The position numbers are program-made. A stretch of 64,000 bases of DNA from Spirochaetia bacterium. GTDB taxonomy: Bacteria > Spirochaetota > Spirochaetia > UBA9216. Shown here piece by piece: positions 18,001 to 42,000 of this stretch. The stretch covers positions 1,120,001 to 1,184,000 of the forward strand of contig CAXXYH010000004.1 of the NCBI GenBank assembly GCA_963677925.2, written 5' to 3'. Numbering within the stretch: the first letter of the stretch is position 1; every line of letters begins with the position of its first letter.

Positions 18001-21000
18001 TTCGTCACAGGTCTGCTAATATAAAATAAAACGGATAAAGTATTGGCAGTTGAAATCGTTTATGAAGAAAATAATAAAATTGGTATAATTTTCCCTTTTG
18101 ATGCCCAGATTCTGGATATTGTACGCACAATACCCGGAAGACAATGGCAGCCCGCAAATAAAAAATGGACATTTCCGGATACTGATGCAAATATGCAGCA
18201 TTTTCTCTTATCATTATATAAAACCGGCAGGTTTAATGTGGATGAGAAGGCTCTCGAAAATCAGGAACCGTCTCATAGCCGCTATTTGGAAAAAATGCTT
18301 CAGTATCTAAAGCTTAGAGACTATAGTCCTCATACTATTGAAACGTATAAGATGCAGCTCAAGTGGTTCTTTGATAGAACAGAACTTTCTCCTTCAGAAG
18401 TCACGACCGAGGATATCAAATTATATCTGGAGAAAATGCGGACACTGGCGGGGTGTTCAAGAACATACTTTGTACAATGTGTGAGCGCCCTGAAAAGCTT
18501 CTATAAGTATGGTTATCCCGGCGGTCTGTTTAATCCTGCAGCATCGATTCCCATGCCGAAAAAAGAAAAGAAGTATCCGGATATTCTATCCAGGGAAGAA
18601 GTGAAGAAGATAATAACATCTCCGTCGAATATTAAGCACCGATTGCTATTATCATTAATATACTCTGCAGGTCTCCGAGTAAGCGAAGCCGTTATAATAC
18701 AGTTGCAGGATATTGATACCGATAGGAAAGTAATTCATATCAGGCAGGCAAAAGGACGAAAAGATAGATATGTAATGCTTTCAACTGAGATTATTAATAT
18801 GATTAATCAATACAGATCCAAAGTGATGGTGCATACATGGCTTTTTCCTGGCAGTGCAGGTGCGGATACCCATCTTGCTACAAGATCTGCACAGAATGCC
18901 TTTTATAAAGCTATAGAAGCAACAGGTATCGAAAAAAATGTAAGTATACATTCTTTAAGACATGCCTTTGCCACTCATCTGTTGGAAAACGGTACAGACC
19001 TGAGATATATTCAGGAGCTCTTAGGTCACCGTGATCCAAAAACAACACAGATTTATACACATGTAAGTACTAAAGACCTAAAAAATATAAATAGTCCACT
19101 GGACGGGTTATTATGAATAACAGGTTTATAAGGATTTAAGCTGGAGGGTTATATGAATGATATACCAGTTTATAATTCTGAGTTTATATGCAATGGACCC
19201 GACAAGAGGAAGACGCCCGGACCTCCGGCCGACGGGCGAAGAGACATAAAGGTGGGGGATTTTTTATGCAAGATTTATATATAAAATATAATAAGAAAGA
19301 TAATAAAATTGATTTTGGGCAAACAAAAGGCTCAATAATCGAGATTACTATAAAGCCACCTTCAATCGTTAAAGAAACAAAAGAAACAGGCATAACGAGA
19401 ATATCTGCTATTCAAGAAGATTTTGATAATCTAATTTCGGGAAAGAAGATGATTGACGTTAATAAAACGACTCTCGAACATTGTTATATCTTGGATAAAA
19501 AGGATCCTTACCGATTAGCGGCGACAAATTTTATTTTAAAAAATGAAAAGGATATTGAAGAATATAGTGAAATTCCAAAAGAAAATGATGCTGGTATATA
19601 TAAAAACTATGTAAAAGCATTTTTAGAAGAATTTACAAGATGTACGAAACACATTCCGTTTGCTGAAAAAATTAAAGTCTATCCTTTACCATTGTTGACT
19701 CCATGTAATGTGGAAGTATTAGTAGGTAAAGATGGTGTGTGCTTTATTTTCTCATCAGAAAGTAGACCTGAAAAAGTAAGTGTTTCCTTAGATATAAATA
19801 AAATAATAGAGGAACTTCTTCTGCCTCATCCTACTAATAGAAGATATTCATCATATGGACCTAATACTATTTTTAATTTTATCTGCTCAGATGAGAATTT
19901 TATACATGTGGTAGGGGATGGGAATGCGTTTTTAGATTCTATGCTAGGGAATCCAGTATTTTTGATTTTTGAAAAATCGTTTCATGGTTATTATTCCAAT
20001 ATGAATTTTATAAGAAATTATCCTGATACGGGACTTCAAGTTAAAAAGAAAGTTGAATATTGTGAAATATTTGGTAATAACCATATCTCTAACTTTTCAC
20101 TTGAAAACGCAAGGAGTAGAGCTAGGATAGTTGCGTATAAATCAATTTTGAGTAGTGTTACAGGAAATGTTAATAAAGTAGAAGAACTTAAAAATGTCTT
20201 GATAGAATTGAAAAACAAAATAAACAATGATGTCGGTGAAATAGAAATTGAGAAATTTATTGATTCAAATAAATGGATTTTAGAGAAAGGGATAGGGTGT
20301 CAAAAATATTTTTCACAAATTTCGATACCGAAAGATTTATTATATGATGCTGATGGTGGAATTAAACCTGATAAATATATGATGAATAATGACGGATATT
20401 GTGATATTTTAGATTTAAAAAAACCATCAGCCAAACTAATTGTAATAAAGAATAACCGCAGTCATCAATCTAGTTCTTTAACCGAAGCGGAGGCACAAAT
20501 TGATAAATATATTGATTTCTCTCGTGAACCAAAGGTTAGAGATTATTTATTAACGCTTAATATAAAAATTACGAAACCTGATGGAATTGTATTGATTGGG
20601 AGAACCCCGAAGGAATATTTAAAAGAATGGATTGATATAAAAAAGAGATTACAAATAAAAGTATATACTTATGATGATTTAGTTAATAATTTGGATAATT
20701 TAATTGATTGGATAGATAAGATTCTTACAATTTGAATTAAGAATCCAGACCTAACTCCGTTGAACGGTCTGGATGTCGGGTCCAAAGCATAAAACAGGGG
20801 CTATGTGTATCGTCGCTATGCGCTCCTCGGGCTGCGCCACATACGGCTACGCCGTACGTCACATAACACCGGGACGTTATGAGCAATAAGCCCGACAAGT
20901 AAAAGACGCCCGGACCTCCGGCCGACGGGCAAAGAGAGACAGTGTGATAAAATATTATACTAAAAAAGTAAATATAGAATTAAGGGTTTTCATATGAAAA

Positions 21001-39000: not shown

Positions 39001-42000
39001 TAACTATGATGAAAAACGTTTCAATAAAAACTGGAGAGAAAATATTCCTGAAGGTTTCAGTGTAAAAAGAATCAGCTCGGAAATTATTAATTCAATTGAA
39101 AATAATGAAGAATTTGTAAATTACATAAAATTTGCCTGGACAACAACTGATCAGTATTTTGACAAAGGATTGGGATACTGTGCTATTGATGCAAATGATT
39201 TTGCAACAATTTGTATTTCTGTTTTTGCTTCTGAAAATGAGCGAGAAGTGGGGATTAAAACATTTCCTGACTTTCAAAGAAAGGGATTGGCATATGTTAC
39301 AGCCTGTGCCTATATTGAAGAATGTTTAAAAAATAATTTTGTTCCTGTCTGGTCATGTTTTAGCGAAAATAAAGTATCAATAAGATTAGCAGAAAAACTT
39401 GGCTACAAAATCGAAGCCTCGCATCCGATTTATTTTGCGAAGATTGGTGATTGAAGAAAACGTATCGCTGGGCATCCATGCCTCTCTACAGGCTTGCATT
39501 CCTGTGCTTGCTGCCTATAACAGAGAATATACACTGCGGCTCGCCTTGGCATTCTGCAAATCGCCTTTGACAAATACCTGATGAAATGTGATACAATTTC
39601 CCATATATTTATTACCCCTATAGGGGTGCCAGGCGACTTTCGTATATTCGAGGAACGTTAGGCCATAATTTATGGAGAAAAAATGGATGTACATATAAGT
39701 AAATTAAACTCCAATACGGATGTTCCTATGGATTTATTGCTACTTGCCGATCCATCGGAAGAATTAGTTAAAAGTTATCTTAAAAAGGGAACATGCTATA
39801 TCGCTGAATTTGATGAAGAAACAGTTGGCGTTATTCTTATTGTGGAGACAAAACCACATACTGTTGAAGTTATGAATCTTGCGGTTAAAGAAGAACTGCA
39901 TAATAACGGTATAGGCAAAAAACTCCTCTTGCACGTTATTGAAGAAATAAAAAAAAGTGATACAAAAACAATTGAAATCGGAACTGGAAATCCCGGAGTA
40001 GTACAAATGTTATTGTATCAAAAGTGTGGTTTCCGTATCGTAGGGATAGATTTTGATTTTTTTAGAAGGACGCATCCTGAACCGATATATGAGAATGGAA
40101 TAGAATGCCGTGATATGATAAGAATGAGAATTGAGTTATAGTATGGAGGGTCTTAACGGTTTTATCCATAAACAGCCCTAACAGCGAATATGCGGTTCTA
40201 CATGGCTTCAACCAAATTAGCCTGCGGCCAACTTCGCATATTCGCGGGACGTAATCTGAAATGCCACCGCGAAGATGTAGCTGCCCGGGTCTCCGGCCGG
40301 CGGGTGATTCTGCAGAGAAAGAATTAAAAACTGTCACGATATATCAAGGTCTATACTTTAAGTAGAGCTGAGTATATGTAAAACTGCAAAAATATTTCAG
40401 AATGGAAGATCTCAAGCCATTCAAATCCCGATAGAATATCAGTTTAAAGGTTATGAAGTATACATTAAAAAACATGGTGATGCTGTATTGCTGATTCCAC
40501 ATGAAAAAGTATGTGAATTAATAAAAGAAAGATCGAAAGAATATAATCCGGTTTATGATGGTCCTCAATTTAAAAATATTAATATCAAACCTTTCAGAAT
40601 AAATGAGTCTGCATCTGAAGAACTCTTTAAGATTAGATATTTTTTCAATCAAAATAAAAATACATTTTACTTTCTTTTCAAGAAAAAAGAGTTAATTGGT
40701 GCAACTCTATATCTGTGAAATTATATTCAATCGCTCTGCATTAACCGAAAGTACCAAAGAATGGGATATGGTGCTAAGCTAACAAAATTCGTTGTAAATA
40801 AAATACTATCAGATGGTCATGACAAGGTTACATTAAAAGTTGTAATTGAAAATATTCATAATTAATGTTATTAATTATAAGTTTGTCTTTTGTGACAGGC
40901 TAATTCAAAAGTAGGAGAAACGTATGAGTTTCAAAAGCAAAAATGAATTAGGTCTATCTGACGTATGTTGTAAGAATTTTTTAAATGATTTAGAAACCGA
41001 AAATGTTTGGAGTTTTTTTCAAAGATTTGAAAAAGATTCAGACCCCACCGATTTAACTGTAGCCGAAGAGTCTTATTTTGATAATTTTCTGTTTTGTGAT
41101 CCAAGTAGTGCTAATTCAATTAAGAAAGAAGATTTCTTGAAATTTTTACCAATTATGACAACTAAATATAAAGAGTTGGGGTACAAAGATAAAAAGTTAA
41201 AAGGACTAGATGTCATCAAATTGAATGATTATTATCTATTAGTCAATGTTACCTGGAATATGATATTTGTAAAGAATGATTTATTAAATGAATATGATGA
41301 TATTAAAGCTACTTATATTTTAAAAAAAGAAAAAAATGGGCATAAAATTATATTTCATTTGGATCATCAAAAATTAAGTGAGATTGTCTAAAAAAAGATA
41401 AGAAATGAAGATAAATCCGTGACTCTTAATAATTAAAATTTCCTCAATCTTTTAAAGATAAAAAGTGAGAAAAATTCTTGCAAATCATGTAATAACATAG
41501 TAAGCTATATGTAATTACATCAATATTTAGGGGCCTCAATGCGTATACCAATAATTAATATCGGAAATTCTAAGGGGATAAGGATTCCTCAGGCAATTCT
41601 TAAACAGGTTAGCTTTAGTGGTGAGATTGACTTAGAAATTGATAATGGAAAAATTGTTTTAAACAGATCCAATAGTCCCGATATAGTACCGGATTTTGAT
41701 TCAATACCGGAAATGGATGATATTACTATACAAAGAATGTTAAGAAAAATAACCGGTATGGATCTGATCACTTCCTTAATAGATGCAGATCAAAGTATTA
41801 AAGAAGCTGTCTATAGAAATCTATCAGAACGCGTTAGAAATTATGTGGTTTTAAAAGTAGAAAAGTTGGAGAAGGGAGATGCTAAAGATTTAATTATTGA
41901 GCAAAGCCGTAATGCTATAAGTGAAGCCTTTATGGATTTAAAAAATGAATAAAGTAAAGGAGGCTTTAATGGAGAATTTGAATAAGATAATGGAAATGAG

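Follow-up and report, generated by a model that had tools for sequence, protein, structure and literature searches.

A conserved 23-base hairpin at the start of integron-like cassettes and its possible part in their recombination

Among the closest known systems to the locus analyzed here are the sedentary chromosomal integrons, such as that carrying the Vibrio cholerae repeats, with which it shares a cassette array and imperfect hairpin sites (attC) that bear R''..AAC and G|TT..R' cores together with L boxes and an unpaired spacer. As in those integrons, the attC sites are homogeneous within an array, and the sequence to the right of the crossover is part of the following cassette, with whose own 3′ end it pairs. 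Several other systems resemble single features of the locus. The ompA, ermC, and aprE leaders are 5′-terminal stem-loops that stabilize mRNA, and a GC-rich hairpin a few bases from the transcript start is predicted here as well, in one promoter context only. Lambda Int is a heterobivalent tyrosine recombinase that has an extra N-terminal DNA-binding domain and uses arm-type accessory sites flanking the core. In class 1 integrons, a noncoding conserved segment can be common to the 5′ ends of unrelated cassettes, as the available text of one paper describes for the 101-bp qacE promoter segment on several cassettes and for the 5′-UTR promoters of cmlA and qnrVC (PMC8876359); this likeness extends to a promoter-like module found at 22 copies of our element.

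Distribution, fold, and variation of hairpin B

The element, here referred to as hairpin B, is a 23-base GC-rich stem-loop just inside the start of many cassettes of integron-like arrays. With up to five mismatches, the 23-mer GCCCGGACCTCCGGCCGACGGGC occurs 16 times in the genome, nine times on the plus strand of contig C4 and seven times on the minus strand of contig C3, and nowhere else. All copies lie on the cassette strand within two arrays, in agreement with the count of the first-pass annotation, and no REP-like dispersal around the chromosome was observed. In the window, that is, the whole 64-kb stretch of C4 that was analyzed, eight copies with three or fewer mismatches were found, all on the plus strand, while none was expected from 100 shuffles; a ninth, with four mismatches, completes the C4 set of that annotation. 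Six copies are exact: 19215..19237 (first cassette, with a Shedu SduA-like cargo), 20908..20930, 21783..21805, 22869..22891, 26901..26923 (flanking pair T.G), and 27842..27864 (identical cassette start also present on C3). Two copies carry one mismatch, 31214..31236 (A18>G, upstream of a Phd/ParE pair) and 33751..33773 (C15>T, which creates a 7-15 pair, upstream of MazE/PIN), and the copy at 40283..40305 is diverged by four changes. The starts given earlier lay 16 nt upstream of the 23-mer because a flank had been included. A search of positions 18000 to 46000 on both strands against Rfam gave no match at an E value of ≤1, so the element still belongs to no Rfam family, as had been proposed.

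The 21-mer described previously was indeed recovered from 7 of 11 genomes of the order, with zero hits for a reversed-pattern control. At the class level, 21 of 401 genomes matched hairpin B with two or fewer mismatches, of which only 14 are solid by the criterion of an exact copy or several copies; the remaining seven have single two-mismatch matches, which is the level of the control (eight genomes, once each). The identical 23-mer is carried by at least four families of the class, and one other Spirochaetia genome contains 141 copies across a 278-kb array. A loose-pattern scan of the genome_contigs collection yielded 120 loci, 13 of them with cassette-type copies.

A single fold accounts for the variation among 192 distinct copies. 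Its outer stem is 5 bp long and its inner stem, which contains an A·C mismatch, 4 bp; a 2-nt bulge and a TCC triloop complete it. Immediately flanking the 23-mer, the pair is CG in 166 copies, AT in 14, and TG in 4, with 8 non-pairs, which reproduces the outer-pair covariation reported before. Within the hairpin, 20 of the 23 positions are almost invariant, and changes are restricted to positions predicted to be unpaired (17, the loop, and 7/15). The A7.C15 combination in the core is kept in 179 of the 192 copies and corresponds to G.T on the bottom strand; because of it, the inner helix is absent from the sense-strand prediction, while the bottom strand folds into exactly this two-tier hairpin (−14.6 versus −11.6 kcal/mol for the top strand; ensemble shares of 0.81 versus 0.24). 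With DNA parameters, however, both strands fold about equally (−7.5 versus −7.7). At the stem end, sense-strand wobbles are found: besides the T.G outside pair in four copies, G1.T23 occurs in two. A1.C23 is seen in two copies. On the bottom strand, the segment ..GGCC-GGA-GGTC.. forms a G-N-A triloop with a C-G closing pair, and loops of the d(GNA) type closed in this way are described as very stable in the available text of two papers (PMC3201870, PMC13037366).

Cassette ends, crossover distance, and hairpin A

Such a cassette is arranged as follows: the crossover G|TT, about 17 nt complementary to the 3′ end of the same cassette, a purine-rich linker, hairpin B, the cargo, a second hairpin (hairpin A), a linker, the 3′ partner of the end-helix, and attC. 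Counted from the G of GTT, hairpin B lies 30 to 32 nt away in 137 of 140 cleanly measured copies. In the 141-copy array, it is the most conserved stretch of the junction, above even the attC core. The earlier statement that the hairpin stands at the cassette start, with a constant spacing behind type-2 attC sites and a different one behind type-1 sites, was borne out. Just after the recombinase gene at the array head lies an attI-like or attC-like junction (19117..19184, plus strand) with its crossover at G19182|TT, and a close relative (G002) is identical up to ..ctgaG|TT and then continues with a different first cassette. A type-2 attC with an extended stem formed from cassette ends is exemplified by 20773..20907 (plus strand), which comprises R'' ATAAAAC, L boxes, R' G|TTAT, and, as far as hairpin B, the 5′ end of the following cassette. 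Hairpin B itself was considered as an attC site and rejected: it has no R''/R' cores and stands 30 to 32 nt on the cassette side of the crossover, whereas the neighboring type-2 sites do have the cores.

It is between the crossover and hairpin B that the bases pair with the following cassette's own end, as is known for attC. This pairing extends 17 to 20 bp past the attC core and includes a conserved internal loop. The 5′ end scored 12.65 against its own 3′ end, 6.81 against the neighbor at the same junction, and 4.58 against random sequences, and the own end beat the neighbor in 79 and lost in 20 of 134 cases; the higher score of the own end argues for selection on the excised or own-end form. 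The end-helix retains top-strand C.A, equivalent to G.T on the bottom strand (16 versus 2).

Hairpin A was found at the 3′ end of the cassette at 20745..20772 (plus strand), folded as CCAGACC-n-AAC-TCC-GTT-gaac-GGTCTGG, and seven further 28-nt copies on the same strand, starting at 21617, 22477, 23718, 27589, 29109, 31935, and 34482, bring the number in the window to eight. All eight lie in cassettes that start with hairpin B, and eight of the nine B cassettes end in A, while hairpin A is present in none of about 14 window cassettes without B. Across five arrays, none of 50 A hairpins occurred without B in the same cassette; the two hairpins are tightly coupled. It follows from the cassette order that, in the excised circle, A and B flank the foot of one long stem composed of attC and the end-helix. 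Hairpin A is also built like B: it has two stems, outer and inner, a bulge on the 3′ side, and a triloop that is mostly TCC. Its inner stem covaries (AAC/GTT, GGC/GCC, GAC/GTC, ATC/GAT, GCC/GGC), and the C-TCC-G core is constant although the rest of that stem changes. In the genome G261, a regular expression for A gave 111 hits, about six of which overlap B, and the loops GTT and GGT appeared about 15 times each. The loop of A is thus not always TCC, and no reader specific to the loop need be assumed. Between its two strands, hairpin A does not differ in folding energy.

Closer inspection of the cassette ends revealed a broader set of TCC-loop hairpins, overlooked by the first-pass annotation, of which B is the most conserved member. 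A different 5′ hairpin at 32103..32124 (plus strand), TGCTTGCCA tcct TGGCAAGCA, is followed by a promoter at 32129-32157 that matches the consensus at 12 of 12 positions, and other 5′ members lie near 24121, 25935, 30460, 32890, 34640, and 38594, all on the plus strand. At the 3′ end, a hairpin with a 13-bp stem and the loop GTCCT (33598..33628, plus strand) has a z-score of −8.3, and more were found at 24982, 26730, 31043, 32744, and 39470 on the same strand. In these additional hairpins, G.T and A.C combinations numbered 1 and 3, too few to decide on an asymmetry.

A rival reading is that hairpin B has no function of its own and simply hitchhikes on a backbone that takes up new cargo or is copied onto it, in which case its conservation would reflect recent common descent or a break/join point in cargo exchange. 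Backbone lineages do exist, and position-17 variants of hairpin B track particular end-helix families. One backbone family of 36 cassettes holds 30 unrelated cargo clusters, with matched ends in 35 of the 36, and conservation stops about 6 to 8 nt past B and a few nucleotides ahead of A, or of a further hairpin in some cassettes. Nevertheless, the 7-nt linker before hairpin B varies at several positions within one backbone family while the hairpin remains constant. The 23-mer is, moreover, kept in two upstream contexts as well as across the families mentioned above. A conserved hairpin beside a variable linker, variation at unpaired positions, and persistence in two contexts and across families indicate that purifying selection acts on the hairpin as such, and we consider hitchhiking improbable. 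Collectively, hairpin B looks like a strongly constrained stem-loop that is part of a conserved cassette backbone and not of the carried genes.

Cargo, promoters, and transcription signals

The genes that follow hairpin B are unrelated, as previously noted; besides the Shedu-like, Phd/ParE, and MazE/PIN cargoes, they encode proteins without a Pfam family. Where the cargo is in reverse orientation, as for a MarR-MatE pair, hairpin B is still in array orientation, now at the 3′ side of the cargo. In at least four window cassettes, a consensus promoter follows the 5′ hairpin; one of these cassettes has the 23-mer (33800-33828, after the copy at 33751) and three have other 5′ hairpins (the promoter at 32129-32157 and those at 30501-30529 and 32939-32967; all plus strand). 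Hairpin B is thus independent of gene orientation and promoters. In 22 of 195 copies the setting is different: these are type-1 cassettes beside a canonical IntI, in which hairpin B is about 100 nt from the crossover and 10 to 18 nt after a predicted promoter-like module (an A-tract, TTAG.., a constant 18-nt spacer, and TGGGTGTAAAAT). Within the window, a promoter-like module (TTGAGA-18-TAAAAT with TG) lies at 22773..22802, with a nested type-1 attC on one side and the right half of a type-2 attC on the other, and others lie at 24015-24044 and 25297-25326, all on the plus strand.

Judged by promoter prediction, hairpin B in the 22 type-1 copies would sit where a 5′-terminal RNA stem-loop is expected, and for these the earlier guess of a 5′ leader in the transcript may hold. 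More generally, hairpin B could be a sense-strand RNA element located at or near the transcript 5′ end, with A at the 3′ end, the two shielding the mRNA from exonucleases; it could also, in read-through transcripts, keep the reading frame apart from the large attC structure, or it could display the anti-Shine-Dalgarno-like ACCUCC. Every copy is on the cassette strand, which is mostly the coding strand, B and A flank the cargo in the manner of 5′ and 3′ stabilizers, and in the 22 copies behind a well-formed −10 box an extension of the stem (ata/tat, atc/gat, aca/tgt) would leave few unpaired 5′ bases. Long-stem hairpins with TCC in the loop make up 11 of 28 array hairpins in the sense orientation and none in the opposite one, compared with 39 TCC and 37 GGA among 1,019 hairpins in the rest of the genome, and the few wobbles at the stem end would be G.U pairs in RNA. 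However, a 5′ leader does not fit the cassettes with promoters downstream of the hairpin or the reversed cargo, where the hairpin is antisense, nor does it explain the coupling to hairpin A; there is no RNA rationale for the fixed crossover distance, and A7.C15 stops the predicted inner helix on just this strand. An intrinsic terminator of the sense strand is not indicated either, as no U-tract follows the hairpin and none of the hairpins, whether B, A, or another, coincides with a terminator-like site on the plus strand. Because of the 22 copies behind the −10 box, an RNA role keeps some probability, though we regard it as less likely than not.

On the minus strand, three related hairpins (33628-33598, 32124-32103, and 27602-27585) with a T/C-rich tail were flagged as terminator-like, and in the promoter context TATTTCTTCTTC follows the bottom-strand hairpin. 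Hairpin B might accordingly be read as an antisense-strand terminator or, its 5-bp arms being an inverted repeat, as a double-stranded palindromic operator to which one shared repressor of the cassette promoters would bind. Yet hairpin B itself was not flagged, and after type-2 sites the antisense tail is GTCTTCCTCTTG, a poor U-tract. An operator would show neither compensating changes of different identity in the outer pair nor free variation at position 17 with every stem base kept, and the position relative to promoters is not constant. Both possibilities appear very improbable to us.

The recombinase and a proposed DNA-level role, compared with known systems

The array is headed by a gene for a tyrosine recombinase (18043..19116, plus strand, like the cassettes), which by its sequence is XerA-like, lacks the IntI-specific insert, and carries an N-terminal domain of about 80 amino acids that resembles HARP near the threshold of detection. 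It scored 232.5 bits against NF040815 (cutoff of 220) and only 194 bits, in two stretches, against the integron integrase model TIGR02249 (cutoff of 265), while the integrase of the C3 array reached 382 bits with the integron integrase model. Against Pfam HARP (PF07443), the isolated N terminus gave 25.2 bits (cutoff of 25, residues 17 to 48) and the whole protein 22.3, and an AF2 model (pLDDT of 80) had the HARP domain of SMARCAL1 as its top Foldseek match (4o66; E value of 0.04, probability of 0.99, TM of 0.45/0.56), a combination that weakly suggests a HARP-like fold. Full-length homologues head type-2 arrays in five other genomes (G002, G008, G010, G003, and G261), in the last of which the canonical intI is broken. 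The family is wider than the hairpin: a 110-amino-acid N-terminal query, which took in part of the SAM-like domain, matched 55 of the 401 genomes, compared with the 14 solid hairpin genomes.

We tentatively favor, at somewhat short of an even chance, the reading of hairpin B as an accessory hairpin that belongs to the recombination site in its folded, single-stranded form. It would most likely act as DNA, forming in single strands on the folded bottom strand, the substrate of recombination, and would thereby affect recombination. Together with A it could constitute a fast-folding GC clamp that sets the attC fold apart from the AT-rich cargo and/or offers the recombinase a structured point of contact. 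Hairpin B may, in particular, be a docking point for the unusual Xer-like recombinase of the array, whose N-terminal domain would then touch it; the HARP-like fold is known to bind branched DNA. The fixed 30- to 32-nt distance, the A partner, own-end pairing, strand asymmetry, gene independence, and the type of recombinase all support a role in DNA, whereas the 22 promoter-linked copies, the sense-strand wobbles, the lack of asymmetry in A, the equal folding with DNA parameters, the weak HARP similarity, and the wider recombinase family count against it. To our knowledge, no accessory hairpins for attC recombination have been described, and the available text of the literature returned by our searches likewise mentions none.

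A bolder idea, and something of a long shot, is that the backbone serves as a reusable empty cassette with A and B as its two ports and that foreign DNA loaded between them makes new cassettes. Backbone and cargo would be joined at the hairpins, as structured sites, either by the Xer-like, HARP-domain recombinase acting as a non-IntI integron integrase or through a template switch that the hairpins induce. Since loading would take place between A and B of an existing backbone, both ends and the matching zip-code helix would be inherited together. If true, this would provide a concrete, testable mechanism of cassette genesis.

The locus departs from its counterparts in several ways. Unlike in the sedentary chromosomal integrons, own-end pairing reaches 17 to 20 bp past the core with a conserved internal loop, the site is flanked by two further hairpins, A and B, the latter lacking R and L boxes and lying outside the crossover, and the adjoining recombinase is without the IntI-specific insert. 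The 5′ modules of class 1 integrons, as covered in the available text of PMC8876359, are promoters or attenuators of defined genes, whereas the 23-mer, a hairpin, shows no promoter features, in most copies has no promoter upstream, and goes together with a second hairpin at the 3′ end. Compared with the mRNA stabilizers, most copies have no promoter just upstream, and the sequence is kept, not the pairing alone. The likeness to d(GNA) mini-hairpins lies in the C-GGA-G loops on the bottom strand of B and most A copies, although some A copies have other loops and the remaining TCC-set hairpins have loops of 4 to 6 nt. REP/BIME and IS200/IS605 subterminal hairpins are likewise short GC-rich imperfect palindromes acting on one strand, and in IS200/IS605 the mobile segment is bracketed by two hairpins; here, however, all copies lie in cassette arrays at fixed places relative to attC, and across the wider set the stems differ too much to be served by a single Y1 transposase. 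With lambda Int the locus shares accessory elements flanking the core site and a recombinase with an extra, putatively binding N-terminal domain, but the elements would be single-stranded DNA hairpins and the N terminus is HARP-like rather than of the lambda arm-binding fold.

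Distribution and fold of hairpin B

The window array lies directly after a tyrosine recombinase gene (18043–19116), on the same strand, and carries nine + strand copies of a 23-nt stem-loop near the cassette 5′ end, here referred to as hairpin B. Six copies match the 23-mer GCCCGGACCTCCGGCCGACGGGC exactly (starts 19215, 20908, 21783, 22869, 26901 and 27842), two carry one change (31214 and 33751) and the ninth has diverged (40283), while none would be expected in the window by chance. The genome holds 16 copies, nine on C4 (+ strand) and seven on C3, the second contig with a cassette array (− strand), all confined to the two AT-rich arrays (approximately 33% G+C versus approximately 46% in the flanks). 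This count and restriction to the arrays agree with the first-pass annotation, as do the lack of any Rfam family in the array at E ≤ 1 and the unrelated nature of the downstream genes, which encode a Shedu-like protein, Phd/ParE, MazE/PIN and several products without a Pfam family. Two cassettes are common to both arrays (window 27842–29240 and C3 ~119600–120835; window 32075–32880 and C3 ~125880–126560), and their starts and intergenic sequences are near-identical.

The earlier report of a 21-mer in 7 of the 11 genomes of the order was likewise reproduced, with none for the reversed control. Across the class, hairpin B matched 21 of 401 sampled genomes; its presence was solid in 14 of them, spanning four families, and the remaining seven had single two-mismatch matches, no better than the control (8 genomes matched). 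Genome G261, which belongs to another family, yielded 159 matches, and the 300 kb examined contained 141 copies (up to four mismatches) on a single strand at a median spacing of 1662 bases. In the genome_contigs scan with a two-N pattern, most of the 120 stretches represent chance matches in high-GC genomes. Outside Spirochaetia, the 23-mer with one or two changes was found in a Halobacteroidaceae MAG (L016) and a Clostridiaceae MAG (L027), in cassette-like or promoter-like surroundings; horizontal transfer or mis-binning could account for these copies.

Variation was measured on 192 copies with distinct surroundings. There is almost no change at positions 1–6, 8–9, 13–14, 16 and 19–23 and slight variation in the three loop bases; position 17 varies freely (G 137, A 30, C 25). 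The sequence fits an outer stem from G1-C23 to G5-C19, a bulge of G17 and A18, and an inner stem of G6-C16, A7×C15, C8-G14 and C9-G13 closed by the triloop T10 C11 C12. Pair 7/15 is usually A·C (179 copies) and occasionally G-C (10) or A-T (3), and pair 9/13 shows one double change from C-G to T-A. The previously described covariation of the outer pairs was recovered, the pair just outside the 23-mer being C-G in 166 copies, A-T in 14, T·G in 4 and unpaired in 8. For the bottom strand, the ViennaRNA prediction was this very two-tier hairpin (−14.6 kcal/mol, ensemble share 0.81); for the top strand it was the outer stem only (−11.6, share 0.24), because the A·C of the top strand is a G·T below. 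With DNA parameters, the two strands fold about equally. The high GC content of the sequence keeps the shuffle z-scores weak.

Three further candidate features were rejected. CsrA-like GGA loops on an antisense RNA were dismissed because nothing points to antisense transcription and the sites are too sparse. A pseudoknot or anti-SD interaction between the loop and the purine-rich flanks was rejected as a general feature because GAGG, found upstream in many type-2 contexts, is absent from the promoter context. A leader peptide was considered, since in some copies the ATG in ..GCAATG.. starts a reading frame that runs through the hairpin, and was rejected because other copies lack this frame or interrupt it with a stop, and copies in the promoter context lack it.

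Position at the crossover and the cassette backbone

Between window cassettes, the attC reads ..ATAAC, AGGGGCTATGTG ... CACATAACCCCGGGAC, G|TTAT... Comparison with the nearest relative places the first crossover at G19182|TT, and the first hairpin is thus part of cassette 1 and not of attI. In 137 of 140 clean measurements at type-2 sites, the kind of attC that separates the window cassettes, the G of GTT and the start of hairpin B are 30–32 nt apart; a second GTT in the spacer spoiled 22 further distances. In arrays that have type-1 sites and a canonical IntI, 22 of 195 copies instead follow a well-formed promoter-like module consisting of an A-tract, TTAG.. and TGGGTGTAAAAT, the last two separated by a spacer of constant length (18 nt) whose sequence varies, with hairpin B starting 10–18 nt past the module. 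The first-pass claim that the crossover distance is fixed after type-2 sites and different after type-1 sites holds. At 22540–22840 and 23790–24083, and also in the C3 array, the loop of a type-2 attC harbors an entire type-1 attC together with its flanks, which include a promoter-like TTGAGA-18-TAAAAT. Elsewhere the type-2 halves stand apart (25180–25365 and 29242–29477), as if split by recombination at the inner type-1 site, and such nested sites could shift cassettes between the two arrays.

Hairpin B has a partner of the same build, hairpin A (e.g., CCAGACC-t-AAC-TCC-GTT-gaac-GGTCTGG), at the cassette 3′ end immediately before attC. Its inner stem covaries (AAC/GTT, GGC/GCC, GAC/GTC, ATC/GAT, GCC/GGC) around a triloop that is mostly TCC. 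Hairpin A closes eight of the nine B cassettes in the window and none of approximately 14 others, and over five arrays it was never found without hairpin B in the same cassette (0/50). Many window cassettes without hairpin B bear different hairpins at both places, again with TCC in the loop (5′, ..GCC(A/T)TCC(A/T)TGGC..; 3′, ..GTACA-TCCN-TGTAC..). Among perfect stems of at least 8 bp in the two arrays, 11 of 28 have a TCC loop on the cassette strand and none on the other strand; the rest of the genome has 39 TCC and 37 GGA loops among 1019. Of 49 other TCC-loop hairpins, 13 are imperfect, with three A·C and one T·G, too few to choose a strand. An apparent A·C in the outer stem of hairpin A in G261 disappeared once the bulged T was allowed to pair, and minimum-free-energy folds of the whole A-attC-B module, which pair parts of A with parts of B, were given no weight. 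At 27561–27588, a (GAAAGA/GAGA)n purine repeat abuts the 5′ side of a hairpin A variant. Many G261 cassettes (L183–L196) also bear a third small hairpin (CAGGTA..TACCTG; ..CAGGTAGAGTAATTACCTG..) approximately 35 nt upstream of hairpin A; it occurs with different cargo and in many cassettes of the largest end family.

Closer inspection of G261 revealed that the cassette 5′ end, right after GTT, is complementary to its own 3′ end over 17–20 bp beyond the core. The own-end score was 12.65, compared with 6.81 for the neighbor at the same junction and 4.58 for random ends, and the own end was better in 79 and worse in 20 of 134 cases. The same pairing is seen by eye in window cassettes 1 and 2, and a conserved AAT/ACTG internal loop occurs in the helix in both settings. 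An internal pair of the helix is C·A on the top strand, that is, G·T on the bottom strand, in 16 cases versus 2, as expected if the structure is used on the bottom strand. Given this pairing, an excised circle would run from A through a linker to one long stem, made up of end-helix and attC, and through a second linker to B.

The G261 cassette ends fall into about a dozen families, the largest of which has 36 members that together carry 30 unrelated cargo clusters; in 35 of the 36 the ends match. Conservation across the 141 junctions peaks at hairpin B, exceeding that of the attC core, and in the largest family the 7-nt linker beside it varies while the hairpin is constant. Descent of the backbone accounts for part of this uniformity; that hairpin B merely hitch-hikes with the backbone is nevertheless improbable, given where variation is allowed.

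Promoters, cargo and the role of hairpin B

The first-pass annotation had guessed at a 5′ leader in the transcript. The 22 promoter-linked copies speak for this proposal, and the strict sense-strand orientation and bracket-like layout of the hairpins also favor some RNA role. Against the leader as a general reading stand promoters that lie downstream of the hairpin, such as that at 33800–33828 (TTGACA-17-TATACT), between the hairpin B at 33751 and the MazE/PIN pair. Downstream of other 5′ hairpins lie the promoter at 32129–32157 (TTGACA-17-TATAAT, 12/12 consensus positions), which is followed by two small ORFs, and the consensus promoters at 30501–30529 and 32939–32967. Overall, promoter-like motifs just after the hairpin numbered 41 and 36 of 195, a weak excess over the 19–29 in control windows. 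The leader is also at odds with a reversed MarR-MatE operon in G261, where hairpin B stays on the crossover side in array orientation, approximately 80 nt past the MatE stop codon. On these sequence data, we consider an RNA role possible but doubtful.

Toxin-antitoxin-sized window cassettes bear their own near-perfect sigma-70 consensus promoters; for the Phd/ParE pair (31314–31917), no consensus promoter was listed. The other reversed genes in the G261 array are insertion sequences and recombinases: transposase genes of IS21-like, IS30-like and other kinds, as well as additional Xer-like recombinase genes, lie reversed inside cassettes (L183, L184, L192, L196; IS family names were assigned by reading translated N termini). 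The product of the first window cassette (19266–20735) bears a Shedu SduA C-terminal domain (E value of 1.7 × 10−12), which makes the gene a candidate for anti-phage defense. As for termination, no + strand terminator-like site coincides with a cassette hairpin, and three hairpins were flagged on the − strand only. We regard a function as antisense terminator or as operator as very unlikely.

Several observations converge: hairpin B keeps a fixed distance to the crossover and has a partner hairpin, the two ends of a cassette pair with each other, the end-helix and the B core both favor the bottom strand, and neither promoters nor gene direction matter to the placement of the hairpin. On this basis we propose, tentatively and at somewhat short of an even chance, that hairpin B is an accessory to the single-stranded substrate of recombination, where it would act as a clamp, as a docking site for the recombinase, or as both. 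Hairpin formation in vivo, an effect on recombination and binding by the recombinase's HARP-like domain are all putative, and the recombination and RNA roles are not mutually exclusive.

The recombinase heading the array

The window recombinase (18043–19116) scored 232.5 bits with the XerA-type model, above its cutoff of 220, and 194 bits with the integron-integrase model, below its cutoff of 265. The latter match was split in two, skipping approximately model positions 173–234, which we take to be the site of the IntI-specific insert. We thus take the enzyme, from its sequence, to be XerA-like and to lack that insert. Residues 1–80 match Pfam HARP at threshold (25.2 versus 25), and the best Foldseek match of an AlphaFold model computed with 12 homologues (pLDDT 80) was the HARP domain of SMARCAL1 (E value of 0.04, probability 0.99); these signals are weak but agree on a putative HARP-like N-terminal domain. 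A word-index protein search with this domain found one near-identical protein only, and the class-wide query missed the distant G261 homologue, which makes its co-occurrence with the hairpin uninformative. Full-length homologues, likewise XerA-like, without the IntI-specific insert and with a putative HARP-like N terminus, head the type-2 arrays of five other Spirochaetia genomes, G002, G008, G010, G003 and G261. In G261, where the array counts at least 141 cassettes, the canonical intI is broken and located far away from it. The Xer-like enzyme may be a non-IntI integron integrase. The C3 array is accompanied by a true, divergent IntI (382 bits).

In the abstracts and passages covered, including passages of PMC3607928, PMC8876359 and PMC8618304, and in literature searches aimed at these features, we found no description of hairpins flanking attC, of extended own-end helices or of a HARP-domain recombinase heading an array. 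How cassettes originate, and why the sites within one chromosomal array resemble each other so closely when the cargo differs so much, is an open question according to the conclusions of PMC8618304. The arrays described here offer an unusually legible case, with a backbone conserved well beyond attC, two bounding hairpins, matching ends and dozens of unrelated cargos, so that cassette formation can be studied as the setting of cargo between two defined landmarks. Should these sites indeed be recombined by the Xer-like enzyme with its HARP-like domain, the term integron integrase would take on a wider meaning.
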